From NCBI GenBank assembly GCA_963676835.2, contig CAXXFF010000002.1:1504001-1568000 (forward strand): a stretch of DNA of 64,000 bases, in the 5' to 3' direction. The stretch is from Marispirochaeta sp. Its GTDB lineage: Bacteria > Spirochaetota > Spirochaetia > JC444 > Marispirochaetaceae. The notes under the pieces are model-generated. The model worked only from the letters and a program-made list of their open reading frames with translations. It did no database searches and was not told the DNA's origin. This document shows, piece by piece, positions 13,704 to 64,000 of the stretch (position 1 is the first letter of the stretch; every line of letters begins with the position of its first letter). The position numbers were made by a program, and so were the translations under genes.

Positions 13704-13806
13704 ACCCTCACCCCGGCCCTCTCCCAGGGGGAGAGGGTGACAGGAGCGACCGGCCATCGGAACAGAAGCCCCCTCGCCCTCTGGGAGAGGGATTGGGGGT
13801 GAGGGT
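13704..13806. repeat. Second inverted pair of the REP-like unit
   Basis: 13704-13739 is identical to 12113-12148; the inverted unit is at 13769-13806. Confidence 0.85.
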
Positions 13807-13906
13807 TGGTTAAAATATGGGAGATGCTTTTTAGAAGCACTGATATACAGAGGGATAAAAGGATATCTCATTTGTCCTTCATGAGATCGATATTGAAGAT
13901 TGACAG

Positions 13907-13954
13907 CCCCCTCGCCCTTTGTCTTTTCAAAAAAAGAAGAGGGGGGGTGAGGGT
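13907..13954. repeat. Degenerate single REP-like unit
   Basis: CCCCCTCGCCCT...GAGGGGGGGTGAGGGT followed by TGGTTAAA, as in the 13769-13806 copy. Confidence 0.7.
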
Positions 13955-14004
13955 TGGTTAAATAAATGGCCTGGATTTAACAGGCTTGATACCGGGAGCG
14001 GGTT

Positions 14005-14820
14005 ATGATAATGGAGTTTAAACAGGCTTCATCGGTGGATGAAGCAGTCGGCCTGAAGAAGGACGGCTATATATTTCTGGCCGGGGGTACCCAGGTAAAC
14101 AGCACCCCCTTCAAGATGCGACACGAGAGTCATAGACGGGAGAAGGTTGTCTCTCTTGCCGGCCTCGGACTGGAAGGGATCAGCAGTGAGGGCGGCGATG
14201 TTATTGTAGGGGCTACGACAACCCTGCAGGATATTGCCGACAGCAGTGAAGTTCCTCAGGCTTTAAAAGATGCAGCAGGTTTTATCCCTACCCGTAGTGT
14301 GCGGAACATTGCCACCATCGGCGGTAATGTGGGAGCAAAGAGGCCGGACTCCTATGTGATTCCCGCTCTTATTGCCCTTGGAGCCTTGGCTGAAACAGTA
14401 AATGGCAGTGTCAGTGTGGAAGAGTATGTCTCCACGGATGCGGAAGATCTGATCTTAGGCTTCCGGATACCGGCGGTCGATTCGGGAAAAAAGAGTGTCT
14501 GCCGTGCGGTTAAGGAATCACGTTCTCATGTAGCCCTGCCGGTGGTGAGTGCTGCTGTAAGTGCAGCTTCCGAAGGCGGAAAAGTATCAGAAATTATTAT
14601 TGCCGCCGGCTGTGTTGCTGCAAAAACAATCCGGCTTTCTGCAGTCGAGGAGGGCATCCTTTCCGGTGCTGTATCTCTGGAAGGAGAGTTCCTTGAAACC
14701 GCTATTGCCGGAGCCCTGCATCCGGCAGAAGACATTCTCGGCAGCAGAGCTTTTAAAACCTACCTGAACTCGGTGCTTATTGCGGACCTTGTACGGGGCT
14801 GCATCCGTGAGGTGGTGTAA
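14005..14820 (+). CDS. ygfM: FAD-binding subunit of a molybdopterin oxidoreductase (YgfM-like)
   Basis: FLAGGT, RNIATIGGN, DILGSRAFK; directly upstream of the XdhD-like gene. Confidence 0.75.
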   Translation: MIMEFKQASSVDEAVGLKKDGYIFLAGGTQVNSTPFKMRHESHRREKVVSLAGLGLEGISSEGGDVIVGATTTLQDIADSSEVPQALKDAAGFIPTRSVRNIATIGGNVGAKRPDSYVIPALIALGALAETVNGSVSVEEYVSTDAEDLILGFRIPAVDSGKKSVCRAVKESRSHVALPVVSAAVSAASEGGKVSEIIIAAGCVAAKTIRLSAVEEGILSGAVSLEGEFLETAIAGALHPAEDILGSRAFKTYLNSVLIADLVRGCIREVV

Positions 14821-17690: not shown

Positions 17691-17719
17691 TACGGAGACG
17701 CGTCAGGGATAGAAGCGAA

Positions 17720-17760
17720 AATCCCGTAGAGGCGTTCTATCAGAACGCCTCTACGGGATT
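17720..17760. repeat. Perfect 19-bp hairpin with GTAG...CTAC core (GTAG-family REP-like)
   Basis: AATCCCGTAGAGGCGTTCT-ATC-AGAACGCCTCTACGGGATT. Confidence 0.75.
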
Positions 17761-17842
17761 GCAGCGGATAGCCCGGCCCGACCGAAAGGGAGGGAGACGC
17801 CCGGATGAAGAAGAAATAGAGAACGAGTAACGAGGAGAGGCT

Positions 17843-19039
17843 GTGAAACAGACGGTTTTAAAGCAGAAGCTGGCGGCGCTTGAGAAGCTTGCCACGCAGA
17901 AGATGGTGAACAATGATTTTCTGTTGACCTGGGAAAAAAGTGATGACGAGATTGCGGCGACCTTTCTGGTGGCCGAGGCGCTGAAGCTTATGCGGGAAGA
18001 GAATATTTCCACCCGGGCCTATGATTCGGGGCTCGGAATCAGCCTGTTCCGGGATAATTCCACCCGGACCCGCTTCAGTTATGCATCGGCCTGTAATCTG
18101 CTGGGCCTGGAAGTGCAGGACCTGGATGAGGGAAAGAGCCAGATTGCCCACGGAGAAACTGTCCGGGAGACGGCGGTAATGATCAGCTTTATGGCAGACG
18201 TTATCGGTATTCGGGACGATATGTACATCGGCAAGGGGAACACCTATATGCGTCAGGTGGCAAAGGCGGTGCAGGAGGGCTTTGACGACGGTGTGCTCGA
18301 GCAGCGTCCCAGCCTGGTGAATCTGCAGTGTGATATTGATCACCCCACCCAGAGCATGGCGGATACCCTGCATCTGATTAACCATTTCGGCGGCGTTGAG
18401 AATCTTAAAGGCAAGAAGGTCGCCATGACCTGGGCCTACAGCCCCTCCTACGGCAAGCCCCTGTCGGTACCCCAGGGGGTGATCGGTCTGATGACCCGCT
18501 TCGGTATGGATGTGGTGCTGGCTCATCCGGAAGGCTACGAGGTTATGCCCGAGGTTATGGATGTGGCGGCGAAGAATGCCGAGGCTTCCGGCGGCGGATT
18601 CAGCCTCACTAGCGATATGGGGGCGGCTTTTGATGGAGCGGATATTGTCTATCCCAAAAGCTGGGCGCCTTTTGCGGCCATGGAGAAGCGGACAGATCTT
18701 TACGGCAATGGTGATCATGACGGGATTAAGGCTCTTGAGAAGGAGCTCCTGGCACAGAATGCCGGACATAAAGACTGGGAGTGTACCGAGGATCTGATGA
18801 AGAAGACCAAAGACGGCAAAGGTCTTTACCTGCACTGTCTGCCCGCGGATATAAGCGGCGTCAGCTGTAAAGAGGGTGAGGTTGCGGCGTCGGTGTTTGA
18901 CCGCTACCGGGTGCCTCTGTATGCCCAGGCGGGATTCAAGCCTTATGTAATTGCCGCGATGATTTTCTTAAGCAAATTCGGTGATCCCGCGGGCAAGTTG
19001 GGCGAGATGCTGAAGGCCGGACGGAAGCGGATTTTTTAG
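17843..19039 (+). CDS. ygeW: Knotted carbamoyltransferase YgeW
   Basis: FRDNSTRTR, NLQCDIDHPTQ, WAYSPSYGKPLSVPQG, YPKSWAP, HCLPADI. Confidence 0.95.
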   Translation: MKQTVLKQKLAALEKLATQKMVNNDFLLTWEKSDDEIAATFLVAEALKLMREENISTRAYDSGLGISLFRDNSTRTRFSYASACNLLGLEVQDLDEGKSQIAHGETVRETAVMISFMADVIGIRDDMYIGKGNTYMRQVAKAVQEGFDDGVLEQRPSLVNLQCDIDHPTQSMADTLHLINHFGGVENLKGKKVAMTWAYSPSYGKPLSVPQGVIGLMTRFGMDVVLAHPEGYEVMPEVMDVAAKNAEASGGGFSLTSDMGAAFDGADIVYPKSWAPFAAMEKRTDLYGNGDHDGIKALEKELLAQNAGHKDWECTEDLMKKTKDGKGLYLHCLPADISGVSCKEGEVAASVFDRYRVPLYAQAGFKPYVIAAMIFLSKFGDPAGKLGEMLKAGRKRIF

Positions 19040-42253: not shown

Positions 42254-43300
42254 ATGGCAAACTCTTGTAAAACAGTAGCATTTCCTGCAGAATGGGCAGA
42301 GCAGGACTCAATACAGATCGCATGGCCCCATGGGGACAGTGATTGGGAACCCTATCTTGAAGAGGCGGAAGCCTGTTTTCTCCGTATTGCAGAGGCTGTT
42401 GCCTCCCGCCAACGGCTCATTATTATTACACCCGATACAGACCATGCGCGGGAATGCATTTCCTCTTTTACAAACGAAACACAATCACGCATCTCTTTTA
42501 TGGAACTCCCCACAAATGACACCTGGAGCAGGGATTTCGGCGGCATAACTGTCTTCAAGCAAGGCAATCCCGAAATATGTGATTTTACCTTCAACGGCTG
42601 GGGCCTGAAATTCCCGGCCGACCGGGACAATCTTATAACCCGGCAGATGTTTGACGGTCAGGTATTTTCTCCAAATACCAAGTATGCTAACTGCAGGGAT
42701 TTTGTTCTCGAAGGCGGGTCTGTCGAGAGTGACGGGATGGGAACCATTCTCACCACCAGTACTTGTCTGCTTTCTCCCAACCGGAATGCCCACCTTAATA
42801 AAAGTGCGATTGAGGAAAAGCTGTGTTCGGTACTTGGAGCTGACAGAATACTCTGGCTGGATCATGGATATCTTGCCGGTGATGACACCGACAGCCATAT
42901 CGATACTCTTGCGCGCTTCTGTAATGAAGAGACAATCTGTTTTGTGGAATGTACTGACAGAAGCGATGAGCATTTTACGGAACTGCAGGCAATGAAACAG
43001 CAGCTTGAAAGTTTCCGTACCCCCGAGGGCCGTCCCTACCGGCTTGTTCCCCTGCCCATGGCGGAGCCTGTGTTTTATGAAGGGGAACGTCTGCCTGCAA
43101 CCTATGCTAATTTTCTGATTATAAACGGCGCTGTTCTCTGTCCAACCTATGGAACTGATACGGATCTTCAGGCACTGAAAATCCTTGGAGAGATTTTTTC
43201 GGATCGGGAGATTATCGGAATTGACTGTTCGGTACTGATTAAACAGCATGGTTCCCTCCACTGTGTGACCATGCAGTATCCAAAGGGGACAATAAAATGA
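42254..43300 (+). CDS. aguA: Agmatine deiminase family protein
   Basis: FPAEW, DTWSRD, FNGWG, LEGGS, DDTDSHID, ATYANF, GSLHCVT. Confidence 0.88.
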   Translation: MANSCKTVAFPAEWAEQDSIQIAWPHGDSDWEPYLEEAEACFLRIAEAVASRQRLIIITPDTDHARECISSFTNETQSRISFMELPTNDTWSRDFGGITVFKQGNPEICDFTFNGWGLKFPADRDNLITRQMFDGQVFSPNTKYANCRDFVLEGGSVESDGMGTILTTSTCLLSPNRNAHLNKSAIEEKLCSVLGADRILWLDHGYLAGDDTDSHIDTLARFCNEETICFVECTDRSDEHFTELQAMKQQLESFRTPEGRPYRLVPLPMAEPVFYEGERLPATYANFLIINGAVLCPTYGTDTDLQALKILGEIFSDREIIGIDCSVLIKQHGSLHCVTMQYPKGTIK

Positions 43301-44187
43301 AACGAGAATCGGTACAGGTCGGATTTGTGCAGCAGCACAACACCGGGGATATTAAAGACAATATGAACCGCCTGTCTGCGGGGATCAAATCTGCTGCGGC
43401 ACAGGGTGCCGAACTTGTAGTCCTTCAGGAACTGCATAACAGTCTCTATTTCTGTCAGGTTGAAACTCCCGATAACTTTGATCTTGCAGAGCCCATTCCC
43501 GGCCCGTCTACTGAGTATTACTGCAGTCTTGCCGCAGAGCATGGAATAGTTCTGGTTACATCCCTCTTTGAAAAACGGGCGGCCGGACTTTACCACAATA
43601 CGGCAGTTGTATTTGATACGGACGGAAGCATGGCCGGCCGCTACCGTAAAATGCACATTCCCGATGATCCCGCCTATTACGAAAAATTCTATTTTACCCC
43701 CGGGGATCTCGGCTTTACTCCAATTGATACCTCTCTCGGTCGTCTTGGCATCCTGGTCTGCTGGGATCAGTGGTACCCCGAAGCGGCACGGCTGATGGCA
43801 CTCGCCGGAGCTGAGATGCTCATCTATCCCACAGCCATCGGTTTTGAAAGCAGCGACAGCGAAGAAGAAAAGGAACGCCAGCGGCAGAGCTGGATTACCG
43901 TACAGCGGGGTCATGCGGTTGCAAACGGTCTGCCGGTAATTGCTGTCAACCGGGTGGGCTTTGAAGCTGATCCCAGCGGTGTCACCGGCGGCATTCAGTT
44001 CTGGGGCAGCTCCTTTGTGGCGGGTCCCCAGGGGGAACTGCTGTATCAGAGCTCAACAGATTCTGAGGATCGCGCGGTTGTGTCGGTTAATTTAAAACGG
44101 TCGGAAGAGGTCCGCAGGATGTGGCCATTTCTGCGGGATCGCCGTATAGACAGCTTCACCGATCTCACGAAGAGATTTATCGATTAA
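43297..44187 (+). CDS. aguB: N-carbamoylputrescine amidase (carbon-nitrogen hydrolase)
   Basis: LQELH, YRKMHIPDDP.YYEKFYF.PGD, VCWDQWYPE, YPTAIG, WPFLRDRR; coupled to the agmatine deiminase. Confidence 0.88.
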   Translation: MKRESVQVGFVQQHNTGDIKDNMNRLSAGIKSAAAQGAELVVLQELHNSLYFCQVETPDNFDLAEPIPGPSTEYYCSLAAEHGIVLVTSLFEKRAAGLYHNTAVVFDTDGSMAGRYRKMHIPDDPAYYEKFYFTPGDLGFTPIDTSLGRLGILVCWDQWYPEAARLMALAGAEMLIYPTAIGFESSDSEEEKERQRQSWITVQRGHAVANGLPVIAVNRVGFEADPSGVTGGIQFWGSSFVAGPQGELLYQSSTDSEDRAVVSVNLKRSEEVRRMWPFLRDRRIDSFTDLTKRFID

Positions 44188-51875: not shown

Positions 51876-52160
51876 GTGACAATCATCCTTCAGCAGTTTA
51901 CAGTAATACATCACTTCCTACTCGCATTCGCCCTGATAATGGAAGTTCCCATGATGATGATTCTTCTCTCCCGAACCCTCAAGTACCGGCTAAACAGACT
52001 CCTTAATATGGTTTTCGGATTGGTTCTGATTCTAATCCAGGCAGGTTCACTGGGCGTTGGAGGGGTTACACTTCACTATGTTTTTTTCAGCGAAATTGAG
52101 ATTTTTATCTGTCTGGTTATTGTTATAACCGCCGCAAGATGGAGACCGGAGCATGTGTAA
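51876..52160 (+). pseudogene. Probable 5'-truncated DUF6326-like membrane protein
   Basis: FLLAFALIMEVPMMMILLSRTL.Y..NR..N and HYVFFS.IE match the C-terminal half of the family; the N-terminal half is not seen. Confidence 0.5.
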
Positions 52161-52319
52161 AGACCTTATTTATCCATAAAATCTATAATCTCCAGTAAGT
52201 GTGCCGTGAGATCCATTCATTTTTTCTGCTGTTTTATTAATTACAGTATTCATTATTGATAGTTAACTCATTACACTCAAATTATTTAGTACCATGTCAA
52301 CTAAATTTTCTCAAAAAAT

Positions 52320-52370
52320 TTGACAAAGCATATCCCGTTACAAATAATTCTTAGTACGGATTCGTACTAA
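52320..52370 (+). promoter_or_regulatory. Sigma70 promoter and palindromic operator of the three-paralog operon
   Basis: TTGACA (52320-52325), 17-bp spacer, AATAAT (52343-52348); TTAGTACG-GATT-CGTACTAA at 52351-52370. Confidence 0.7.
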
Positions 52371-52401
52371 AAATCTATTTCTGTAGATCAGGAGGATTTG
52401 C

Positions 52402-53097
52402 ATGGACAAAGAACAAGAAAAGGTTATCGAGGAAGCTTGGAGCAAAGAGTCGATAATGGATGTAGAGATAAACATCATTGAACGGATGATTGGTTGTAGA
52501 ACCATTGAAGCCGTTGAAGCAGCAATAAGCTATGCACGCTTTCTGCGCTTGTCTGGACTGAACAATGATAATTATCCACTATTTTTACGCCTGCTTGAGG
52601 TGGAAAATCACTGGGTTATTGACTCCCTTATCGGAGACAAGGATCCCTTCCTGCTCCTCAGCTCAATTCACCCTAATAACTATGTGATTTTGAGCGCATT
52701 TAAACTGCTTACCAACTGGCACCCCGGGGGAATCTATCCGAAGACCCTGGCGATTATTCTGGGCGTTCTGCAGGCGAGCTACAGCTCTCCGAAAGACGGT
52801 TACAGGATCTACAACACCAGTATCAACGACGTTAACAACCTGGGAAAACACCTGAACAAGGAACTTGGACAGGATGATCCCAATAACCGTTGTATCCTGG
52901 ATATCCTCGACCGTCTTGGCTCTCTGGCCGGAACCACTGAGAATTCCAGTATCGAGCAGATGGCCCGTCAGTCTAACAGTATCAGAACCTTCTTCTTCGA
53001 CAAGAGGAAAAAGATGGAAGATATTATTCCTCAGGTACTGTTGGTCAAGTCTGACTACATCGCAAAAGAGATCGCCCCGGACAAGGTCTTCGCATAA
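52402..53097 (+). CDS. Unknown-family protein, paralog 1 of 5
   Basis: AGGAGG RBS; aligns end to end with 53116, 53972, 58760 and 61433. Confidence 0.9.
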   Translation: MDKEQEKVIEEAWSKESIMDVEINIIERMIGCRTIEAVEAAISYARFLRLSGLNNDNYPLFLRLLEVENHWVIDSLIGDKDPFLLLSSIHPNNYVILSAFKLLTNWHPGGIYPKTLAIILGVLQASYSSPKDGYRIYNTSINDVNNLGKHLNKELGQDDPNNRCILDILDRLGSLAGTTENSSIEQMARQSNSIRTFFFDKRKKMEDIIPQVLLVKSDYIAKEIAPDKVFA

Positions 53098-53115
53098 GGG
53101 CAAGGAGAGCTTAAT

Positions 53116-53907
53116 ATGAAAGAACTTTTCGAAAAGAAACAAACATGGACACAGACCGACATTGCAAGCATTGAATACAGCCTCTTAAAAGGACTTATGG
53201 GCTGTAGAACCATGGAAGCCGTAGAGTCAGCATTGACCTATGCAAACTATCTTAACAGCATTGGAATTACCAGCAGCAATTATCCCATATTTCTGAAGGT
53301 CCTCGGAGTGCGTAATCACTTTGTTATAGATGCCCTTCTGGGAACCCGGGATCCCTTCCTGTTTATGAGTTCCATTCAGCCCAACTACTTTATTGTGGCT
53401 ACCTGTTTCAGTTTTCTGGCGAAATATCATCCCGCAGAAATCTATTCAAAGACTCTTGGAATTATTCTGGGCGTTTTTCAGGCTGCCTTCAGCAATCCTC
53501 TGGATGGATACAACATTTATCCCCCTACAATTGCGGATGTTAACAGTCTTGGTAAGCACCTCATCGAAGAAAAAGGTCAGGATGACCTCTTAAACAGAAG
53601 TATCCTCGATATCCTGGATAAGATTTCCGAACTGGAAGGACAGGGTAAGGACGAAGAGATGGAAGATCTGGCAGTTCATGCTCATAACATCCGCAACAAC
53701 TTCTTCGATTCCACAAAACATCTTGTACAGGTTATACCCGATGTGCTGCTTAAATCCGAAGTAAACCTTGATCCCGAGGTTGAACCCCGTAAACAGCAGC
53801 CCCTCGCAGATGTGGAAAAGAGTGCTCCTAAGAAGGCGGCGGCAGCAGCGGCTCCCAAGGAAGCGGCCAAGGCAGCTCCTAAAGAAGACGAAAAGGCTGA
53901 AAAATAA
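53116..53907 (+). CDS. Unknown-family protein, paralog 2 of 5, with Ala/Lys/Pro-rich tail
   Basis: AAGGAG RBS; shares GCRT.EAVE, NYP.FL, DPFL, GKHL and IP.VLL with paralog 1; tail KSAPKKAAAAAAPKEAAKAAPKE. Confidence 0.9.
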   Translation: MKELFEKKQTWTQTDIASIEYSLLKGLMGCRTMEAVESALTYANYLNSIGITSSNYPIFLKVLGVRNHFVIDALLGTRDPFLFMSSIQPNYFIVATCFSFLAKYHPAEIYSKTLGIILGVFQAAFSNPLDGYNIYPPTIADVNSLGKHLIEEKGQDDLLNRSILDILDKISELEGQGKDEEMEDLAVHAHNIRNNFFDSTKHLVQVIPDVLLKSEVNLDPEVEPRKQQPLADVEKSAPKKAAAAAAPKEAAKAAPKEDEKAEK

Positions 53908-53918
53908 TCACACGTCAG

Positions 53919-53953
53919 CAGCAGGACTGGAGGCTACGCTGCCAGTCCTGTTG
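53919..53953 (+). promoter_or_regulatory. Intercistronic hairpin (mRNA-stabilising or attenuating)
   Basis: CAGCAGGACTGG-N11-CCAGTCCTGTTG with no strong U-tract, between paralogs 2 and 3. Confidence 0.55.
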
Positions 53954-53971
53954 TAGGTAAGGAGAGTACCA

Positions 53972-54652
53972 ATGATGCGATGGGAAGAATCTGGTTGGGA
54001 TCAGGAAGATCTTGATAAACTGGAGCTGTCCTTTCTCAACAGAATTTTCAAACTGGAAGAATCTCAGGGTGTTGCAGCTACTGTCACCTTTGCTCGGTAC
54101 TTGAATATGGTTGGAGTGAATCCGGATAATTATCCGATCTTCTTCAGGCTGATTGCCATGAGGAATCACTGGATTGTGGATGCTATTCTCGGAAAAACAG
54201 ATCCGGAAGAGTATTTTATCAATATCCAGCCAAATTTTTATATAATCCGGGAGTGTTTTCGGGGAATAACCGAAGTAAAACGCGGCGGTATCTATCCAAA
54301 GAGTCTGCAGATATACCTCGGTATTCTCAGGAGAACCTACAGTAATCCTCTTGAAGGATACCGTGTATTTCCTCTTGATACCGTTAACTGTAATAATCTG
54401 GGAAAACATCTTAATGAAGAAAAAGACCAGAAAGATCCTTTAAACCTGGATATTCTGACAATTCTTGACAAGGTTGCCTCCCTCATAAGTCCGGGTAAAC
54501 CCGAAAGCGATGAGGCGATTATCAGTGTGGCAACGCAGGCGAATAATATTCGCGGCAAATTCCTTGATATGACCAAGTCTCTCAATGAGGCTATCCCTGA
54601 TCTTTTGCTGGAAGTGGAAGATTATACGAAGCTGGAAATCAGTCCCGAATAA
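53972..54652 (+). CDS. Unknown-family protein, paralog 3 of 5
   Basis: AAGGAG RBS; FARYL, NYPIF, NHWIVD, GGIYPK, NPLEGY, NNLGKHL, IPDLLL. Confidence 0.9.
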   Translation: MMRWEESGWDQEDLDKLELSFLNRIFKLEESQGVAATVTFARYLNMVGVNPDNYPIFFRLIAMRNHWIVDAILGKTDPEEYFINIQPNFYIIRECFRGITEVKRGGIYPKSLQIYLGILRRTYSNPLEGYRVFPLDTVNCNNLGKHLNEEKDQKDPLNLDILTILDKVASLISPGKPESDEAIISVATQANNIRGKFLDMTKSLNEAIPDLLLEVEDYTKLEISPE

Positions 54653-54687
54653 TAACAAGACACTGCTGTACCAGCAGCACAACATTG

Positions 54688-54723
54688 AAAGCCCGGAGTG
54701 TAGTAGATGCTCCGGGTTTTTTT
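54688..54723 (+). terminator. Intrinsic terminator of the paralog operon
   Basis: AAAGCCCGGAGTGT-AGTAG-ATGCTCCGGGTTTTTTT. Confidence 0.8.
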
Positions 54724-54833
54724 ATGTCCATGTATTTTTGTTGCTGCGTCTGTTTCTTTAACTGTCGGGAGGAGAAGAGCAGCGCAGGTGTTAAATAGCA
54801 AGTTGAAATAAAGCTGAAGTTTTCGTGGGGTTC

Positions 54834-56906
54834 TTATTTTCTGAAGGGGCTGGTTACCCTGCGGATAACCTTTTTTACAAAATGTCTTAACCGGGCGAAA
54901 AAGCCCTGCTTTTCTGATATATCGGCGCTTGGCCGCGGTTGATCAACCGTCGGGGGCAATATGGAATCCTTATCTGCAAGCTCTTTTTCGGTGGTACTGC
55001 CTTGTTCAGTTATGTTTTCCGACAGATCCGGATTGGAGCCGCTGCCGGATACTGATTCAAGTCTACCCTGTCGCGTTGTTCCGGAATCTGAAGATTCCAT
55101 GCCCTTATCGGAGGCATCTGAAACACCTCCGGGAACTGTATCCAAATTCCGGTCTTCCCGCTTTTTTCCTGCCCGGTTATGCAGGTCTCCTGTAATTAAC
55201 TGATCTTCATCGGCAGTATGTTCTTCGGGATTCGTACGCTCTGTATTGATTTCGCCATTTTTATACGCGCTTCCCTCGCCTAATCCGCCTTCTCCTTCAA
55301 GGTCGAGAAACTCCCCGGTCAGATCCGGCGTTCCTTCGCCGAACAGATACTCAGCACCGGCTTCAGCTTTACGCTGGGCAAAGCCCGGGTGGCGGTAAGT
55401 CTCTCTGTCCTGCTCTCTGTATTCTTTATCAGGATTCTCTGCGGTGTTGCGCTTGGTATTTTCTTTCGGTTCTTCAGCCTTTTTGCCCGGTCTGTTTTGT
55501 GCCAGGGGTTTCGGCTGACCATTGTCTTGTGCACGTCGGTTCTTATCGATAGGCAGCATGGGAGCTGACCGCTTTTCTCTCTTCTGTTGAGTATTTTCGT
55601 TGCCCACCAGCCTGCCGGTAAGACCGCTGAAATGGTCCTGAAGCCGGCGAAGAACCTCTGCCACTCTGTTGCGGCGGGCTTCCTTATCGGTATCAGGTTC
55701 ATGGAGGCTTCCTGTTATTCCCGGAGTACTGCCTGAGTCTGCTGGTGTTTTCCCTGCAGTGTTTGGCGGAAGAGGTTCCAGTTCATCCTCCAGGGGCATA
55801 AGCAGTTCCGGTTCATCGGAGGTACTGTAGCCGGGCTTATTCTTTCTGGTTTTTCCGGGTAGCTTTTTTCCACGTATAAGCCGCTGAAATGCGGAAACTA
55901 CACGGCTGATAAAGCCTTCACGCTCCGGCGGAGGGGAGACCCCCTCGGGATAAAAGTTCCCGTCCGGTGATGGGGTATGCTGAACTCGTTCAACAGCAGG
56001 GCGGAGAAGGGGTACCGGCGTCTCCGGCGGTGTAAAGTCCTCTTCGCTGGAGATTGTTTCTCCACTGCGTATCCGTTTAAGAATATCAGAGAAGTCCCGT
56101 GCTTCCAGCCTTGCCTTGGCATGCTCATTAAGGTGGTCAATCAGCTCCTTCTCCGGGTGGATTTTTACTATGGTGTTAAGTGCTTCCTCTATGGATGCCA
56201 CTGATTTCGGATTCCTGGCTGTTTTTTGGGCTATTTCAAGAATAGTTGCCTTCTGTTCAGGATCGCCGTCACTTTCCGGTACCAGCTGGAGGAGTTCCAG
56301 GGTAATTACGGATACCGCATAGAGATCCCGCCAGGGCCCTTCAGGGTATTTTTCCGCAGAAAGATAATAGGGTTTTATTTTCTGCACATACCGGCCTTCC
56401 GGAAAAGCATCCACAAAGAGGGATACCCCGATGTTGCGCAGTTTTATACGTCCATATTCAATGTTCGCGTCGGGAACAACTATTGCCCGGGGAGAGAGAC
56501 TGTTGTGATGAATCCCCGCCTGTTCGAGGCTATAGAGTCCTCTCAGCAGAAAAATAATAATATTCATTACCTGGTCAAAGCTGACAATCAGTCCCTTATC
56601 CATCACCTGCCGCAGGGAGTATCCTTCTATCCAGTTAGAAGCCATAAACCGGGTATTTTCGTAGCTGCTGTATTCAAAAGGGGCAAGAATATAGGAGTTG
56701 TCAAAGTTATAAATACGGAAAAACAGATCCTCAAAACTCTGTAGAACCTTTGCCGGTGGGTCATTCTTGAGAAAGTTAAAAAATGAGATGGAAAAATTAT
56801 TGGGAGAATACATGGCCTTAGCCCGCCATGTAGAGAAAATTTCATTCTCTCCCAGATTTTCCTGCAGCAGATAACAGTTATTAATCGGTTTTCCAATAAA
56901 TTCCAT
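54834..56906 (-). CDS. Hanks-type pseudokinase with a long disordered tail and amphipathic helices
   Basis: Kinase-like segments YLLQENLG, WIEGYSL, GIHHNSLSPRAI, IKLRNIG, RDLYAV with catalytic residues replaced; C-terminus KQGFFARLRHFVKKVIRR; start placed at ATG 56906. Confidence 0.78.
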   Translation of the reverse strand: MEFIGKPINNCYLLQENLGENEIFSTWRAKAMYSPNNFSISFFNFLKNDPPAKVLQSFEDLFFRIYNFDNSYILAPFEYSSYENTRFMASNWIEGYSLRQVMDKGLIVSFDQVMNIIIFLLRGLYSLEQAGIHHNSLSPRAIVVPDANIEYGRIKLRNIGVSLFVDAFPEGRYVQKIKPYYLSAEKYPEGPWRDLYAVSVITLELLQLVPESDGDPEQKATILEIAQKTARNPKSVASIEEALNTIVKIHPEKELIDHLNEHAKARLEARDFSDILKRIRSGETISSEEDFTPPETPVPLLRPAVERVQHTPSPDGNFYPEGVSPPPEREGFISRVVSAFQRLIRGKKLPGKTRKNKPGYSTSDEPELLMPLEDELEPLPPNTAGKTPADSGSTPGITGSLHEPDTDKEARRNRVAEVLRRLQDHFSGLTGRLVGNENTQQKREKRSAPMLPIDKNRRAQDNGQPKPLAQNRPGKKAEEPKENTKRNTAENPDKEYREQDRETYRHPGFAQRKAEAGAEYLFGEGTPDLTGEFLDLEGEGGLGEGSAYKNGEINTERTNPEEHTADEDQLITGDLHNRAGKKREDRNLDTVPGGVSDASDKGMESSDSGTTRQGRLESVSGSGSNPDLSENITEQGSTTEKELADKDSILPPTVDQPRPSADISEKQGFFARLRHFVKKVIRRVTSPFRK

Positions 56907-56919
56907 AGTATCCGCTGCT

Positions 56920-57849
56920 TCAGGTTTTCTTTTTATAATAGTCCAGGAAAGACTGACCCATGCCGGAATATCTGTCGTCAACTTCCTGCTGCTTTGCAGT
57001 ATCCCGCGGGGTAAACCACTTGCGAAAATACTCCACCAGGTATTCCATGCGGTACATCACATTGGCGGTAATTTTTTCCGCCACTTTTTTTTCATCATCA
57101 AATATGCTGCAGGAAAATACCTGAAGACAGATATCGTATATTTTCTCCCGGGATATGCTGGACATAAGGGTGAGTCTCTGGTCGAAGTCTTCGATGGAGA
57201 GGGCATTGAAATTGTCCGGTTTCAGCAGGGTCAGGAATCTGGTTTTCTCTTCACGGTGCCAGCCGAACTTGTCTTCCAGACCGAATATCTTCATGCCCTC
57301 TGTTTCAAGGTCTGCTTTGTTGTAATCTATTACCACGATAAAGGGTTCGCCGTCGGTATCGTGTTTGATCAGATAATTGTTGGGGTTGCGGTCCTCATCA
57401 AAGAAAAGCCAGCGGTTAAGCAGATCATTGGCCAGCATCTTAATGTAGGGCTCCTGAAGGTAGTTATAGCTTCCAATCTGCATGGCGCTTGGAATCTGTT
57501 TCGTGGCACGGTAGAGGGTCTCTCCGTGACGATAGACAACAGTTGGAGCAGCGGGAGTCTTCAGAAGAAAATCAATATAAAAGGCTATTTCCTGTATTTT
57601 ATGTTCCGGCCCTTCTGCTGCTGATATTTCCTTGAGCAGCCAGGAGGCGCCGTCATCATCCAGTGCGCCGGTATATCCCCGTACCTTTGCAAAGAAGGGA
57701 ACCAGTTCATCATCACCGATATCGGAAAGCTGAAGACTGCACATACTGGTAATAAGCTCTTCAATGGAAAGATCCAGATAGAGGGTCTCCCTGAAACCGG
57801 GATCCTTAACTGTGTCGGCAATCAGCATGTTGGTGTTTTTCTCAGACAT
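56920..57849 (-). CDS. Atypical kinase (HipA/PI3K-like catalytic motifs)
   Basis: WLLKE, FDEDRNPNNYLI, VVIDYN; overlaps the phosphatase stop codon. Confidence 0.7.
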   Translation of the reverse strand: MSEKNTNMLIADTVKDPGFRETLYLDLSIEELITSMCSLQLSDIGDDELVPFFAKVRGYTGALDDDGASWLLKEISAAEGPEHKIQEIAFYIDFLLKTPAAPTVVYRHGETLYRATKQIPSAMQIGSYNYLQEPYIKMLANDLLNRWLFFDEDRNPNNYLIKHDTDGEPFIVVIDYNKADLETEGMKIFGLEDKFGWHREEKTRFLTLLKPDNFNALSIEDFDQRLTLMSSISREKIYDICLQVFSCSIFDDEKKVAEKITANVMYRMEYLVEYFRKWFTPRDTAKQQEVDDRYSGMGQSFLDYYKKKT

Positions 57850-58744
57850 AGTACTTCTCCGTCTTGGCTGTTACTGCATATTTCTCGCTAATGTTTCCGT
57901 TTTCAATCAGCAGGTATGGTCCCCGGGTCTGAAGATTGGTGTAGATAATTATGTGATTCTTTATGCCGATAATATCCCGCCAGATACCGGTAAGGTTGCC
58001 GGTATTCCACATGGGGTTGTGTCCCACAATAAAAGGTGTATCTTCGGGGAGATCCAGCTTGCTCAGCATCTTCCTGATATCATGCTCACCGTACTCTTTC
58101 AGATTCGGATTCCCCCGGAATTCATGGAGACGGTTCCACATAAGCTGACGATAGTAGTCTTCGTTGTCCTTGATATTAACCAGTTCATGGCGTGAACAGC
58201 CGTTCCTGATTGGCCCTGCATGGGTTATTGCATAGCCGTTACCGATTATAAACATGGGCAGGGCTTCAAAAAATTCCGAAACTGCCTCGACATATTCATC
58301 TCCCCTGTGCTCCTCCAGGTGAAGACGAAACTCAAGGCCCTGTTTTATGGCACTTTTTGCCAGCCGTTCTTCGAAGGTGTCATGATTCCCGCGGATATAG
58401 ATTAGGTTGTGTTTGTACTGCAGGATCAGGTTGAAAACCTCTTCAAGTACCTGCAGGGACGACGCCATCTCCCGCATTTCACCGGTCTGGTCATTATGAA
58501 CACCGTCGCCGATTATGATTATCCGTAATTTACCTGCATCAAGTTGTTTGCGGTTATCTTCATGCTCAATAATAGCTTTCAGGTTATCCAGTGCACCATG
58601 GAGGTCTCCGATTACTATAACCGGCCGTTTATCCTTTGAAAAATCGAGGAGTCCCCCCGGTCGGCCCTGGTCATCTTTGGCTCTGTCCGGGTTGCTCTCG
58701 ACAATTTTTATCACTTTGCGAATCTCAACGGGGCTGATACTCAT
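57842..58744 (-). CDS. Calcineurin-like metallophosphoesterase (PPP-type phosphatase)
   Basis: VIGDLHG, IGDGVH, RGNHD, THAG, VGHNP; AGGAG RBS. Confidence 0.85.
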   Translation of the reverse strand: MSISPVEIRKVIKIVESNPDRAKDDQGRPGGLLDFSKDKRPVIVIGDLHGALDNLKAIIEHEDNRKQLDAGKLRIIIIGDGVHNDQTGEMREMASSLQVLEEVFNLILQYKHNLIYIRGNHDTFEERLAKSAIKQGLEFRLHLEEHRGDEYVEAVSEFFEALPMFIIGNGYAITHAGPIRNGCSRHELVNIKDNEDYYRQLMWNRLHEFRGNPNLKEYGEHDIRKMLSKLDLPEDTPFIVGHNPMWNTGNLTGIWRDIIGIKNHIIIYTNLQTRGPYLLIENGNISEKYAVTAKTEKYYV

Positions 58745-58759
58745 GGTTAATCTCCTGGA

Positions 58760-59482
58760 TTAATTATTAGAGATTTTTCCGGCGAAATCAAAAAAATCTT
58801 CCGCCGGCCGTACCTCCCTGGATTCACGGTTCAATCTTACCAGGAGAACTTCTGGAATAGTGTCTTTCAGTGACTTTGTGTTATCGAAGAATGCATCCCG
58901 CATATTGAAGGCCAGACGGGAAATACCCGCTTTATGAGGTGTGTAATCCATCTGGCCCAGCTTTGTCATCCTGTCGAAAATCTCAAGTATAAGCGAGTTG
59001 GTTGCATCTAACTGATCTTTATCTTCATCCAGGAATTTTCCTATATTCTGCAGGTCTGCTACTTCAATCGGGTAGATGTCATAGCCTGTATCCGGTTTGT
59101 GGTAGGTATATTCAACGGTGCCGAGAACCGCCAGCAGTACTTTTTCATAGATCTGTCCCGGATGCCAGGATGAGATGAGCTCCAGGGCATGGCGGATAAG
59201 GTATGCATTCGGGCGTATGGATGAAAACAGGAGCCTAGGGTCCCGGTCTTCAAGCAGTTCATCGACAACCCATTTGTTGTTGGTCTCAATAATTTTTAAA
59301 AAGAGTAGATAGTTCCTTGATGTTATTCCCACATGGCCAAGATATTTGGCGAATGCCATGCTGGAACCCACCTGTATGGGAGAGGATACACCAAAGATTC
59401 CTTCCAGTATGATCTGTCGATTCTGCATGATAATTTCGTCGAAATCAAACGACAGGTAATCACCGCCCATTAATATCCCCAA
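58760..59482 (-). CDS. Unknown-family protein, paralog 4 of 5
   Basis: FAKYL, NYLLFL, NKWVVD, DRDP, WHPGQIYEK, NIGKFL, FFDNTKSL, IPEVLL; start is TTG 59482 or ATG 59470. Confidence 0.88.
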   Translation of the reverse strand: MGILMGGDYLSFDFDEIIMQNRQIILEGIFGVSSPIQVGSSMAFAKYLGHVGITSRNYLLFLKIIETNNKWVVDELLEDRDPRLLFSSIRPNAYLIRHALELISSWHPGQIYEKVLLAVLGTVEYTYHKPDTGYDIYPIEVADLQNIGKFLDEDKDQLDATNSLILEIFDRMTKLGQMDYTPHKAGISRLAFNMRDAFFDNTKSLKDTIPEVLLVRLNRESREVRPAEDFFDFAGKISNN

Positions 59483-59604
59483 AAAATCCTTCTGTTCCCT
59501 ATCATATCCAAATAGGAGTATATAAAATAAGTATCATGGATATCATTCCTGATAGCAAGATATGGAATTCACTATTTTTCCGGGCTTTCCGGTAAGGTAT
59601 ATCA

Positions 59605-61440
59605 GTGAATAACAGCCCTTCCTGGGAGCAGCAGCTCGAAGACATCTACCAGTTTGCCCGGCTTCACCACTGGGTAAGCCAGCTGAATGAGCTGATTGAG
59701 CAGTTTGTCGGTGAGTTCTCACAAAATTATAATGAAATCTCCCGCAAGATACATGCCAGTCATCTGTCAGGGCAGCAGAACCCGGCGGACAGTCTTGTTT
59801 CTCTTGTTTTGCTGCATAAATTTCAGACACCGGTCCTCGAAATTACCGAGAAGCTGTTTCATCTGCTTTATGGAAAGCTTGACAGTAAGGATCAGCAGTT
59901 TCTTATTCTCCATTTTTTCAAAGGAATGCTCCCTCTTTCCACTGATGACAGTCATGAGATAATAATCCGCTCATTTATCTCCTATAAAAGGGCAATATTT
60001 CGTGGAATGCAGATTGAAAATCTTGTTTCCAACGTGAATCCCGCAGAAACAGCTCTGTTTTTTACGGTGCTGATCTGCAGAGTAGATGTCCACACCCAGA
60101 ACCGTGCTTTAATAAACCTGCTTCTCTACAGAATTGAGGCGAGGCTCCCGGAAAATGTCCTTCAGGGGGTATTGGTGTACCTCAAGAAGCTCAGACAGGT
60201 TATATACGAGGTCTATACCCGGGGAGAGAAGGTTCTCTCCGATGAGTTGAATATTTCCGAAGAGCCTGATCTGCTTCAGATCGAAGATGATGCCCTCATG
60301 GATACCGCCGGTGTGTATGAGGCGGAAGAAGAGCCCCCTCATGATCTGTCTTTACCGGAAAAAGCGGCTGGATCGACGGCATCCGGTAAATCCGGCAGTT
60401 CAAGTCTTGAGCCTTCGAATGATGATTCAGGTGGACGGACTGCCGGGGAGAAGCCCGGAGGCATGGATAACCCCCGGGAAACAAGTGTCAGATCGCCGGA
60501 AAGTGACATGGCTGCTGATCGTGGGCGGGGAGAACCCACGAGGGGGCAGGAACATGTCCGCCAGGGGGAAGGCTTTGCGGCGGCTGCTTTTGCACAGGAT
60601 ACGACAAACCTGCAGACCCATGGGTCTGCGGATAATACGGGTTCTTCGGGAGATTTTGATGGATTAACCGCATCCGTAAATGGTCCAGCCTCCGGAGCAC
60701 TGGACGGAGCGGTTCTCCAGGAACCGGAAACCGGTGACAACAATATATTTCAGGTGGCGTTTAACCGGAGCATCGAAAAGCTCCTTGATCTTCTCGGGGA
60801 TGCTGGAGAGCTTCCAGTCGGGGAAGAGGCCCTTCTTAACGATGAAACAGACATGAAGTCAGAGGGTGGAACCGGGGAAAGTAACATGGAAAAGCCCCAT
60901 GCCCACAGAGCTGAGCAGAAGGGGGCTCCTGCAGCTTCGGGTCCTGCACGGTCAGGACAGAAAAAGCGTTTCGGCATTGGAATCCTTATTTCCCTGGGCG
61001 CTATCGTACTGCTGTCTGTTGTTCTTTTTGTTGCCCTCGGACAAGGGCACAGTTCCGAGCCTGTCGCGGCCGCTCCGGCGCCGGCGGTAACTGCCCCTGC
61101 TGCAGAGCCGAAACCTGTTCTTCCGGAGATTGTCAGTGAACTGCGGCAGTTGCCTGATGAGCAGACTTCATCTGTAGCATCGGAAGGTATCGGGGGAAAC
61201 AGTATCAATCCCGATATCAAGGTGGAAGATGGTAACTTTCTCTGGCGTGTGCAGGAGGGGGAGTCGGTCTGGAAGATGTATATCTTTGCCAGAGGGGGCT
61301 CTGGAATCTTTAAACTGTCCGTCGATGTAAGCTGGGGAGATTTTCTTGAAATGTTCAGAAATCTTAATCCCATGCTGCGCAATCCGGATGTAATTTATCC
61401 CGACAATCTGCTGCGGCTCCCTGGAAACGATGCTATATAA
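59605..61440 (+). CDS. Bitopic membrane protein with C-terminal LysM-like domain
   Basis: Helical N-terminal domain, acidic disordered linker, KKR followed by a TM helix, Pro/Ala linker, WRVQEGESVWK...NLNPMLRNPDVIYPDNLLRLP. Confidence 0.75.
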   Translation: MNNSPSWEQQLEDIYQFARLHHWVSQLNELIEQFVGEFSQNYNEISRKIHASHLSGQQNPADSLVSLVLLHKFQTPVLEITEKLFHLLYGKLDSKDQQFLILHFFKGMLPLSTDDSHEIIIRSFISYKRAIFRGMQIENLVSNVNPAETALFFTVLICRVDVHTQNRALINLLLYRIEARLPENVLQGVLVYLKKLRQVIYEVYTRGEKVLSDELNISEEPDLLQIEDDALMDTAGVYEAEEEPPHDLSLPEKAAGSTASGKSGSSSLEPSNDDSGGRTAGEKPGGMDNPRETSVRSPESDMAADRGRGEPTRGQEHVRQGEGFAAAAFAQDTTNLQTHGSADNTGSSGDFDGLTASVNGPASGALDGAVLQEPETGDNNIFQVAFNRSIEKLLDLLGDAGELPVGEEALLNDETDMKSEGGTGESNMEKPHAHRAEQKGAPAASGPARSGQKKRFGIGILISLGAIVLLSVVLFVALGQGHSSEPVAAAPAPAVTAPAAEPKPVLPEIVSELRQLPDEQTSSVASEGIGGNSINPDIKVEDGNFLWRVQEGESVWKMYIFARGGSGIFKLSVDVSWGDFLEMFRNLNPMLRNPDVIYPDNLLRLPGNDAI

Positions 61441-62002
61441 GCAGTCCGTGAGGAATAACCGACTCCAGTCCTTTGGTGGTATCCAGGGCGGCATCCCTGA
61501 TTTTCGCCGCAACCAGAGAAACTCCGCCATATTCACGTGAGGGAAGGGCTGTAACAGCTTCCATTATCCCGGTGATAAACCGCTCCGCCGTCTCATCCTG
61601 CAAAAGCAGATATTTTGCTGTGTGGTAAAGCTCCTGGGCTGTCAGGGGATGTATTTTCATGCCGTTTGCAGGATGTGTGTAAACAGATGCCAGAGTACCG
61701 GTACAGGCATAAACAACCCTCCGGTCTGTTTCTCCGGCTCTCCGGCTGCTGAGCAGATCAAGAATCGATGCCACCAGCCTTCTGTCAGGTGTTACAGGCG
61801 AAAAGAGTGACTCCGGTGTTCTTTTTTTAAAAACAGCATCCAGAACTTCTTTATCGTTCAGGGACAATACCTTGAGGTACATGTGCAGGGTTTCAGCATT
61901 TACGGGCAGATTGGACAGGTATGCTGCAAAGCCTCTGGCGCCTTCTATGGCTGCCTGTGTTCCCGATTCAAGCATCTGATTAAGCAGGTCCGACTGATTC
62001 AT
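61433..62002 (-). CDS. Unknown-family protein, divergent paralog 5 of 5
   Basis: FAAYL, YLKVL..NDKEVLD, YTHPANG, AKYL, IRDAALDTTKGL..VIPHGLL; GAAGGAG RBS favours ATG 62002. Confidence 0.8.
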   Translation of the reverse strand: MNQSDLLNQMLESGTQAAIEGARGFAAYLSNLPVNAETLHMYLKVLSLNDKEVLDAVFKKRTPESLFSPVTPDRRLVASILDLLSSRRAGETDRRVVYACTGTLASVYTHPANGMKIHPLTAQELYHTAKYLLLQDETAERFITGIMEAVTALPSREYGGVSLVAAKIRDAALDTTKGLESVIPHGLLI

Positions 62003-62190
62003 ATATGCTCCTTCCGGCCCAATCATAGTCTATCCCCGGAGATATTGCAAAAAAACTCTAATTCATACTATTCCGGATCTGTAAAGAAAAAAGTTTAAAA
62101 AAACGAAGAAAGTACTTGATAATTTTTTATCGATAAATTATTATCGTATTATCAATTCTGATTAGGGATTTATTCCCGGGAGCGAGAGCG

Positions 62191-62604
62191 ATGAATAAAT
62201 TATCGTATCTGGTTATTACAGTAGTTTTAGTTCTGGCGGCTGCAGGATGCAGCACCCGGCCCTTTACACCTGGCAGTTACATTGGAACAGCACCGGGTAT
62301 GCTCGGCAATGATGTTGTTGTCGATGTTTTGGTAGATGCGTGGAGTATCAAATCCATCAAGATTATTCGATATAACGAGCCCTTGAAGGCATCGAGTGTA
62401 GCTTTTGAGAGTATTCCGAAAGCAATTATTGAGGGACAGAGCCTTGATGTAGCTCCGGTTCCTGGTGCACTTGGATCAAGCAGGGCAATTATCAATGCAG
62501 TAGCAAATGCACTGCATAGCGCAAGTTCTGATTATGGACTTGCAGGTTCAGAAAGGTTTTTTCCGGCAGCTTCTGCCGATGGGACAGTGGCTGTTCTGGA
62601 ATAA
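62191..62604 (+). CDS. FMN-binding-domain lipoprotein
   Basis: Lipobox AAGC, PGSYIGTAPG, IPKAIIEGQSLDV..VPGALGSSRAI..AV..AL; the usual SGAT flavinylation Thr is not present (PGAL). Confidence 0.72.
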   Translation: MNKLSYLVITVVLVLAAAGCSTRPFTPGSYIGTAPGMLGNDVVVDVLVDAWSIKSIKIIRYNEPLKASSVAFESIPKAIIEGQSLDVAPVPGALGSSRAIINAVANALHSASSDYGLAGSERFFPAASADGTVAVLE

Positions 62605-62623
62605 CAGGCCGTGTAGAATATCA

Positions 62624-62663
62624 GGCCCGGAGATGCGTTGCATTTCCGGGCCCTCTTTTTTTT
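62624..62663 (+). terminator. Intrinsic terminator
   Basis: GGCCCGGAGATGC-GTT-GCATTTCCGGGCC followed by a T-tract. Confidence 0.75.
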
Positions 62664-62697
62664 GTTTTCTTTGTTTTTTCAGTTTAACTTTACTTTC

Positions 62698-63231
62698 TCA
62701 GACATCAGCCATAATATCTTTATTCATTCCAACAAAGGTTTCCACCATAATTGTTGTTGCCTCATCAATCAGCTCGGACTGCTCTTCGGCAGAGAGGCTT
62801 TCGGGGCAGGCGACAATGGTGAACACAGGTGATGTTTTGCTGATTGGACTTTTACTGAAGCTGAGACATTTGTCCGTTTCAGCATTCTCGGCCATTACGC
62901 AGCCTTCCCGGGTAATGGACGCAGGAACATCATTACGGAAACCGATACTGGTGTAATCAATCTTACGCTTCCCATCCACAAGGGGGCCGATGGATACAAG
63001 TGATCCTGAATAGGTCAGAGCCAGGGCTCCGCGCTCGTCGTCAGCGGCAAAGCTTCCGACTTCATCCATACCCATCTCGATCATTGATTCATCAAAGGCC
63101 TCTTTTTTCTCGATCCATCCGGCACCCAGCCGTGCAATGGTATCCTCGTCCGCTTCCAGGCCGAAAGACTCGGCAACTTCGTTAAGGTGTTTGTTGATAA
63201 TTTCAGGCAGTTCAGTCATGGTAACGTCCAT
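62698..63231 (-). CDS. Acidic hypothetical protein
   Basis: GGAGG RBS before ATG 63231; LTYSGSL, YTSIGFR.DVP. Confidence 0.75.
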   Translation of the reverse strand: MDVTMTELPEIINKHLNEVAESFGLEADEDTIARLGAGWIEKKEAFDESMIEMGMDEVGSFAADDERGALALTYSGSLVSIGPLVDGKRKIDYTSIGFRNDVPASITREGCVMAENAETDKCLSFSKSPISKTSPVFTIVACPESLSAEEQSELIDEATTIMVETFVGMNKDIMADV

Positions 63232-63344
63232 GGTATCCTCCGTTATTTCTTGAAATAAGTTACCTAATAGATATATCCTTTGATCCGTTTGCGGTATGTG
63301 CCGTTTGGTATGTTTTTTCAGATAAGCGGTGGTATAAAATAAGT

Positions 63345-63920
63345 ATGTCAGTTTCAAGCAGCAGATCCGGTTCCCGCTGGTTCCTGAAAGGACGCCTTGC
63401 CGACGGGTCTCCCTGGACAATTCCCATCCGGGATCCCCGTTTTCTCATAGGACGCTCTGCGGAATGCAGTCTGATCCTCGATTCCATGGAAGTTTCCCGG
63501 CGTCATGCCTCGATCAACACGGCAGAAGGCAGTCTATATATCAACGATCTCGGCAGTCAGAATGGAACTTTCCTGAATGGTGCAGCCCTTGATTCCACCC
63601 GTCCGCTGGAAAACCGGGATATTCTGAAAATAGGCAATCATGAGTTTATGGTATGCGAAACTGAGAAAAAACGGGTGGAAGCGGTTCAAACCATTGTTGA
63701 GGAAGCGTGCAGTAACAGCTTTGCCGCACGGTTCGGCCTGTCTGCCCGGGAAGAAGAGATTCTATACCTGCTTATTCATGGCGACTCAATGCAGGAGATT
63801 GCACGGAAGCTTTATATTTCTCCGGGGACAGCCAAGAATCATGTCCTGAAGATCTATAAAAAGACAGACTGTCATTCAAAGATAGAAATTGCAAATGCCT
63901 ACCGGGAATATACGGGATAG
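63345..63920 (+). CDS. FHA-domain + LuxR-type HTH transcriptional regulator
   Basis: FHA motifs IGR, VSRRHA, DLGSQNGTFLNG; HTH LSAREEEIL...IARKLYIS.GTAKNHV..IYKK. Confidence 0.9.
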   Translation: MSVSSSRSGSRWFLKGRLADGSPWTIPIRDPRFLIGRSAECSLILDSMEVSRRHASINTAEGSLYINDLGSQNGTFLNGAALDSTRPLENRDILKIGNHEFMVCETEKKRVEAVQTIVEEACSNSFAARFGLSAREEEILYLLIHGDSMQEIARKLYISPGTAKNHVLKIYKKTDCHSKIEIANAYREYTG

Positions 63921-64000
63921 TCTCCGGGATTTATTCGTTGCCGCAGTGGTCAAACTCCATGCCGGTAAGCTCGCTTATGGTATGCATACTGGTCTGAGAA

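Follow-up and report, generated by a model that had tools for sequence, protein, structure and literature searches.

We analysed a stretch of 64,000 nucleotides (nt) from Marispirochaeta sp. (NCBI GenBank assembly GCA_963676835.2, contig CAXXFF010000002.1, positions 1,504,001 to 1,568,000 of the forward strand), which is called the window below; positions are counted from its first letter. The right-hand part of the window carries five homologous genes of one protein family together with genes for an atypical kinase, a PPP-family metallophosphatase and a pseudokinase. The open reading frames (ORFs) between positions 52320 and 63920 matched those given in a preliminary description of this DNA. 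That description had placed five homologous proteins in three transcription units, and this was borne out: the five ORFs, termed paralogs 1 to 5 (p1 to p5), share pairwise identities of 23-47% (E-values of 1e-15 to 1e-77) and are spread over three transcription units. No further copy was found elsewhere in the 4.4-Mb genome. On the forward strand, a sigma-70-like promoter (52320-52348), which has 11 of 12 consensus positions and is the best in 52000-64000, precedes p1 (52402-53097, 231 amino acids (aa)), p2 (53116-53907, 263 aa, with an Ala/Lys-rich tail) and p3 (53972-54652, 226 aa). A strong RNA hairpin (53918-53954, forward strand, -29.5 kcal/mol, z -4.0) lies between p2 and p3. On the reverse strand, p4 (58760-59482, about 236-240 aa) is followed by the genes for the phosphatase (57842-58744, 300 aa), the kinase (56920-57849, 309 aa) and the pseudokinase (54834-56906). 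These four genes form a tight operon, as had been proposed: there is a gap of 16 nt after p4, the phosphatase and kinase genes overlap by 8 nt, and about 13 nt precede the ATG of the pseudokinase. It should be mentioned that this ATG start is inferred and that the longest ORF begins at 56981. A gene for a bitopic protein of 611 aa (59605-61440, forward strand) is divergent from the operon, and p5 (61433-62026, reverse strand, about 189-197 aa) follows it.

Four or five paralogs together with their own kinase and phosphatase make up a module, which is present in some free-living spirochaetes. Among 401 genomes of the class Spirochaetia, all at least 90% complete, 44 gave the paralog family, 42 gave the kinase and 40 gave the two together. 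Kinase and family thus go together in 40 of the 46 genomes with at least one of them. A phylum-wide sample of 401 genomes gave 16 with the family, and the 12 with the kinase were all among these. The two kinase-only genomes of the class sample carry orphan kinases (L178 9391-10242 and L179 9067-9927), in which the otherwise invariant catalytic loop is altered, and paralogs were not found in these genomes. We then counted the genes at 82 loci with the family: the kinase was present at 63, the phosphatase at 63, the pseudokinase at 51, a LysM-type protein at 21, a transmembrane (TM) GGDEF-like protein at 12 and a TM-Zn-ribbon protein at 11, where the profile hidden Markov models were built from the same loci and related loci are not independent. 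When the count was confined to the 29 loci flanked by 4 kb or more on both sides, the corresponding numbers were 26, 27, 21, 6, 7 and 4. Metagenome loci anchored on the kinase carried the family in 73 of 80 cases, and the seven exceptions were contigs of under 2.5 kb. When only well-flanked kinase loci were considered, the family and the phosphatase were present in all 27. The core genes stay together across many families despite varied order and orientation. Thus, the proposed core of writer, eraser and paralogs stood the comparison. Paralogs that mostly lack the kinase, phosphatase and LysM genes had been fixed beforehand as the finding that would speak against a system; for the two enzymes this was not what we observed (each at 63/82 loci). 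A GTDB-wide scan with p1 peptides gave 75 loci, of which 72 were in spirochaete-titled records, two in records titled 'bacterium' and one in a record titled 'metagenome'. Paralog 5 adjoins the module at three of 75 loci and is unlinked in genome G175; a search with its profile returned only five proteins and no taxa.

The preliminary description had taken the whole 11.6 kb as a single system with an FHA-LuxR regulator as its reader of phosphorylation. Both ideas had to be given up. The segment 62191-63920 encodes an FMN-binding lipoprotein, an uncharacterised ORF (62698-63420, reverse strand) and the FHA-LuxR regulator (63345-63920, forward strand). Among 171 family-bearing loci, a number that includes some refetches of the same stretch, the sister genome is the only one in which this segment adjoins the family. 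Because these three genes adjoin the family only there, the conserved system ends at about 62,030, and we rejected them as parts of the module. Moreover, an ortholog of FHA-LuxR was found in the module-less genome G403 and was not found in the module-bearing genome G405. By neighbourhood comparison, FHA-LuxR is a real gene outside the conserved module.

The paralogs did not match any family in Pfam, NCBIfam, PADLOC, PHROGs or the PDB sequence profiles, and Foldseek searches of PDB and viral libraries gave no family assignment. The sole Pfam trace was a sub-threshold match of p2 to DUF1824 (E 0.09), and the top score in the ESM Atlas was 0.87, which is a lead only. The model of p1 made by AlphaFold2 is all-helical without strands (predicted local distance difference test (pLDDT) 93). 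The structures that match it best are armadillo/HEAT solenoids (Z 8.3, root-mean-square deviation (rmsd) 4.7, 161 residues aligned), at the background level and with many tied rows, and a Foldseek search with p1 gave no match at E <= 0.001. Armadillo/HEAT proteins such as MEILB2, importin-alpha and beta-catenin share the right-handed helix stack with p1 (Z 7-8.3), whereas such scores are the background among helical proteins and identity is only 10-15%. Because no paralog has a hydrophobic segment, the paralogs are probably cytoplasmic. Basic residues are conserved: K149 is nearly invariant in 103 family sequences and R195 is invariant in p1-p5. In p1, T104, T115, S129, S140 and S217 are invariant, which makes them candidate phosphorylation sites. 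A p1 ortholog of 99% identity is present on a Marispirochaeta sp. chromosome record, and the cultured type strain Sediminispirochaeta smaragdinae DSM 11293 has one of 86% identity. No description of the family was found in the open full-text literature, where we searched also for the WP accession of the p1 ortholog; supplementary tables of spirochaete ortholog groups were outside this scope. In the passages of 10.1101/2025.07.04.663154 that were retrieved, the words kinase and phosphatase do not occur, and the retrieved passages of PMC7159879 concern different systems.

In the kinase, K73 and E79 are nearly invariant and DEDRNPNN and ID175 are invariant across 41 sequences. Because these residues are kept, the atypical kinase is probably active, with Asp153 as catalytic residue. 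Its fold is most similar to PI4KIIa (Z 15.1, rmsd 4.0, 232 residues aligned), followed by CtkA (Z 14.1, 3.7, 213) and Fam20 (Z 13.7, 3.8, 232), and further structural matches are MavQ, Vps34, actin-fragmin kinase, CotH and HipA. The hallmarks of the PI3K-like atypical kinases that were looked for were found, namely the fold, the Lys/Glu pair, the catalytic DxxxxN loop and the metal-binding Asp. The module kinase thus shares its fold and the DRNxxN and ID motifs with PI4KIIa, CtkA, Fam20, MavQ, actin-fragmin kinase, CotH and HipA. In contrast to this group, to which it is about 10-12% identical, it has no Pfam match, no cognate antitoxin and no secretion signal. The phosphatase (Metallophos, E 4e-12) is a member of the PPP family, with the motifs GDLHG, GDGxHND (a variant) and GNHD in addition to H175 and H242. 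In 28 sequences D47, H49, D80, N120, H121, H175 and H242 are invariant, and with them all metal ligands. Its best PDB profile matches are BSU1 and PP5. Inositol-1-phosphate synthase was not found in any of five module genomes, while a control set gave 6/14; a protein substrate is therefore favoured over a phosphoinositide.

The third enzyme-like protein of the operon is a Hanks-type pseudokinase (Pkinase, E 2e-4) with a disordered linker. The beta3 Lys, HRD and DFG positions of active Hanks kinases are not conserved in 19 orthologs, and the C-terminus is a basic amphipathic helix with a moment of 0.9. A pseudokinase with a membrane-type C-terminal helix had been predicted for this gene, and the loss of the motifs and the helical moment agree with this prediction. 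One lineage of pseudokinases ends in the basic amphipathic helix, and the other ends in a different C-terminal domain.

Several observations set p1 and p2 apart. Mean column identity was 84% for p1 and 86% for p2 (62 orthologs each), compared with 68% for p3, 61% for p4, 55% for the kinase and 48% for the phosphatase, although the row sets differ between the proteins. When genome G000 was compared with three distant genomes, the identities were 74-76% for p1/p2, 80-86% for MreB, 56-64% for full-length FtsZ and 39-53% for the module kinase and phosphatase. The use of highly-expressed codons among 3279 ORFs placed p1 at percentile 90 and p2 at 91, and p3, p4 and p5 at 43, 22 and 18. Upstream of p1, 52 of 69 orthologs have a TTGAC/TTGATA hexamer and 67 of 69 a GGAGG ribosome-binding site, both counted with no shuffled control. 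A palindrome at 52351-52370 was considered as an operator and rejected, since it is not conserved upstream of the orthologs. The hairpin between p2 and p3 had z <= -2 at 47 of 65 loci, a value that neither of two control windows reached at any of the 65; it is likely an expression step-down or stabiliser. Promoter, ribosome-binding site, codon bias of p1/p2 and hairpin fit an unequal stoichiometry. Direct repeats of the p1-p2 cassette (2.2-2.4 kb, 98.9-100% identity) were observed at five distinct loci (L050, L051, L054, L058 and L077), where they flank the rest of the module; three of the five are on multi-megabase chromosome records. Such near-identical repeats suggest dosage amplification or gene conversion. 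From these data, p1 and p2 look like an abundant core.

We also modelled the p1-p2 complex. The prediction weakly supports a p1-p2 contact, with a score of 0.60 against 0.00 for the best control, but the individual runs gave 0.60, 0.83 and 0.00, their contact agreement was 0%, and the pLDDT of the partner fell to 37. The pass mark is reached by 116 of 157 solved pairs and by two of 215 mismatched pairs; passes at 0.60 or under comprise 18 of the solved pairs and both mismatches, so a pass at this level is often wrong unless the pair was likely beforehand.

The bitopic protein consists of a helical N-domain, a disordered linker, one TM segment (Kyte-Doolittle hydropathy 3.0 at residue 460) and a degenerate LysM-like C-domain. 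It had been called a TM-LysM protein. The single TM segment and the divergent orientation were confirmed, whereas the LysM domain was weaker than claimed: 15 orthologs gave no LysM match in Pfam, and only a partial similarity to the LysM of SafA was detected (E 0.0036 with the single sequence and E 0.0022, over 26 residues, with a profile). The N-domain is conserved. It has no match in the ESM Atlas and shows no homology with the paralogs by hhalign (probability 0.1%). The suggested cell-wall anchor is an accessory that varies between lineages: the protein is present at only 21 of the 82 loci, and other lineages have TM-GGDEF-like or TM-Zn-ribbon genes instead. The former, found at L051 14338-15099 and 11 other loci of one lineage, encode a membrane-anchored GGDEF-like protein within the module, with the variants SGDEF, NGDEF and EGDEF. 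The latter, found at L006 9246-9779 and 10 other loci, encode a small protein composed of a TM segment, an acidic linker and a Zn-ribbon, which adjoins the module and has no Pfam match.

In a quick tree, for which 166 rows were taken from selected loci, p1, p3 and p4 each formed a starred clade, p2 formed a starred clade and a separate deep group, and p5 was a long-branch group; p5 is fast-evolving, truncated and optional. Judged from these sequences, the paralog duplications predate the spread of the module. The module is patchy within the genus (3/6), and a single clade of same-genus copies was rejected (p of the approximately unbiased test (p-AU) 0.003; quick tree, with the group chosen after viewing the paralog tree). 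The patchiness and this rejection point to horizontal transfer of the module. In plasmids, phages and viral contigs, p1 was not found.

Some loci deviate from the usual arrangement. A kinase-free form with two paralogs is present in one family of genomes (L168 4844-8902, L169 and L170, from G597, G602 and G587, respectively). Its neighbours are an 80-aa upstream protein, an RsbW-like HATPase gene, a 361-aa uncharacterised protein and STAS and SpoIIE genes. At L019 10001-11329, p1 and p2 are fused in frame into 442 aa at a locus without p3, p4 and the enzymes, where decay or misassembly is possible. A 442-aa p1-p2 frame is also present in G478, in which the kinase was not found. The candidates P0001 and P0002 look like frameshift artefacts and were rejected as natural p1-p2 fusions; fusions were not used as support.

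From the genes present and their co-occurrence, from folds and catalytic motifs, and from the signals of conservation and expression described above, we infer binding, polymerisation, substrate and cellular role as follows. The module may encode a hetero-oligomeric scaffold or polymer that lies at the inner membrane and is switched by phosphorylation, and we give this proposal an even chance. The paralogs would assemble as a cytoplasmic hetero-oligomer, that is, a scaffold, lattice or filament. In this assembly p1 and p2 would be the abundant body, probably in a 1:1 ratio, and p3, p4 and p5 would be minor subunits that act as caps, nucleators or adaptors. Paralog 4, which is made alongside the enzymes, would probably recruit the kinase and phosphatase; the atypical kinase would phosphorylate subunits and the PPP phosphatase would reset them. 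The pseudokinase, through its amphipathic helix, would attach the assembly to the inner membrane; a bitopic protein of the LysM-like, GGDEF-like or Zn-ribbon type would do so as well in some lineages, the anchors being interchangeable. A more specific form of this proposal is an armadillo-like heteropolymer that serves as a cytoskeleton or envelope scaffold, is toggled by the PI3K-like kinase and PPP phosphatase, is tethered to membrane and peptidoglycan and is passed horizontally among free-living spirochaetes. This specific form is possible, but we regard it as doubtful.

Several points weigh against the scaffold proposal. The case for a polymer, its localisation, its expression and its phosphorylation is indirect. 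The armadillo-like fold is generic, and such folds are usually adaptors. The best structural match of the kinase is a lipid kinase. Furthermore, the paralog pair occurs without the module kinase in G587, G597, G602 and G478, and because of this the phospho-switch is not obligatory. As for the membrane hold, the amphipathic tail is limited to one pseudokinase lineage, and the LysM-type envelope tether is variable (21/82 loci and 6/29 well-flanked loci). Finally, the comparison of conservation is confounded by horizontal transfer, and the codon bias of p1 and p2 is only at the 90th percentile, measured with a reference set of six genes.

The same genes could instead form a signalling hub like the stressosome, in which a finite complex of paralogs retains the kinase until a signal sets it free, with transcription or a second messenger as output and no structural role. 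For the stressosome, several paralogous subunits are described as co-assembling and working with a dedicated Ser/Thr kinase, as is proposed for the module, and the gene organisation of RsbR paralogs, RsbS and the RsbT kinase is comparable. Furthermore, an RsbW-like HATPase_c_2 gene immediately precedes the kinase-free pair, with STAS and SpoIIE genes nearby, a TM-GGDEF-like gene is present at 12 of 82 loci, and in G422 the module abuts a cluster of FHA, vWA, Hanks-kinase and PPP genes. The STAS-linked genomes, however, are not independent, because all three belong to one family. The neighbourhood has no conserved transcription factor or sigma factor, and the paralogs are conserved end to end without variable sensor domains. 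Stressosomes are built of STAS subunits with variable sensor domains and have a GHKL-type kinase and a resetting phosphatase of the PP2C type. In contrast, the module subunits are all-alpha solenoids: p1 is all-helical, and no paralog has a STAS match in Pfam. The kinase has a PI3K/PI4K-like fold and not that of a GHKL-type RsbT kinase, and the phosphatase is of the PPP type. A stressosome is a megadalton assembly of paralogs by which the kinase is sequestered; the counterpart in the module is the weak p1-p2 prediction. We regard a stressosome-like hub as unlikely, though worth keeping in mind.

Two further explanations are improbable in our view. If the kinase marked a membrane lipid or metabolite, which the metallophosphatase erases and the paralogs read in the manner of ENTH/VHS domains, its similarity to PI4KII, Vps34 and MavQ (the top matches) and the conserved basic residues K149 and R195 would be accounted for, and ENTH and VHS are indeed among the fold neighbours of p1 (Z 6.9-7.6). 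These Z-scores are at background level, however, and the protein kinases CtkA, Fam20, actin-fragmin kinase, CotH and HipA match the kinase nearly as well (Z 12-14). In addition, the phosphatase profile is nearest to protein Ser/Thr phosphatases, and the inositol synthase was not found in five genomes. About the same low probability goes to a mobile system for conflict or defence, with a kinase triggered by phage or stress and paralogs that serve as sensor or effector. It would suit the patchy presence in the genus, the same-genus copies that are not one clade and the presence of kinases, but the paralogs show extreme conservation and not diversification. In PADLOC 2.0 neither the paralogs nor the atypical kinase had a match; the hits were generic, to kinase domains for the pseudokinase and otherwise to helix-turn-helix domains. 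Clustering of the 75 loci gave no recurring nuclease, toxin or mobile-element neighbour, and p1 was not found among plasmids, phages and viral contigs. Chance clustering of unrelated genes in an accessory region holds for the right-hand 2 kb (FMN lipoprotein, uncharacterised ORF and FHA-LuxR). For the core it is refuted by the linkage of the genes through several gene orders across many families, and as an account of the module it is very improbable.

Among known systems, Ter clusters with the TerY-P triad resemble the module, since there too a multi-paralog family of obscure mechanism adjoins a kinase and a phosphatase. TerD is a beta-sandwich, whereas the paralog model is all-alpha, and no Pfam or NCBIfam match to TerD, TerB or vWA was found in the module. 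BtubA/B, CrvA/B and bactofilins with bitopic anchors are analogous in having a highly conserved adjacent paralog pair, a patchy distribution and a membrane or cell-wall tether, but the module paralogs have no sequence or fold match to them. We know of no dedicated kinase-phosphatase operon in the BtubA/B, CrvA/B and bactofilin systems. Tubulin-like fibres were reportedly described long ago in Spirochaeta bajacaliforniensis; these reports could not be found and were not used. The locus had not been recognised as a known secretion, Ter-type, microcompartment or defence locus, though an earlier description was allowed for, and the paralogs matched no known family. As far as sequence comparison goes, the composition of the module is new: defining components of stressosomes, Ter clusters and known defence systems were looked for and not found, while the analogies with BtubAB, CrvAB, bactofilins and Ter are drawn from general knowledge.

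The remaining observations concern the surroundings. The true start of the uncharacterised ORF 62698-63420 is probably near 63231, which gives about 177 aa. It has two homologs on contig C1 of G000 (L002 2940-9709), one of which is fused to an HU-like domain, in a cluster that also encodes a PPP phosphatase, a Hanks kinase, an FHA-like membrane protein and a vWA-FHA protein. A cluster of this type abuts the paralog module in G422. The C1 cluster is possibly a second undescribed phospho-signalling module. At the left of the window, 178-19039 is a purine/xanthine degradation-type cluster with a large flavin oxidoreductase, amidohydrolases, two molybdopterin dehydrogenase sets and a carbamoyltransferase. 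The GC content is about 0.53 there and drops to 0.37-0.48 past 20 kb. An Rfam Flavo-1 match at 17697-17782 (42.9 bits against a gathering score of 42 bits) is unexpected in a spirochaete and may be a simple hairpin. At 42254-44187, an agmatine/peptidyl-arginine deiminase is followed by a carbon-nitrogen hydrolase-like ORF, likely a polyamine pathway pair. Finally, the DUF6326 ORF at 51876-52160 covers only positions 51-133 of the 135 profile positions and is possibly truncated.

Very few bacterial families match MreB or FtsZ in conservation while being unnamed and optional. The system is tractable, with small proteins of predicted solubility and a p1 ortholog in a cultured type strain. If p1 and p2 polymerise, they would be a new structural system that combines a fold associated with scaffolds of eukaryotes with a dedicated, eukaryote-like kinase/phosphatase switch. 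If the module is a signalling hub, the design of the stressosome would have been invented independently.

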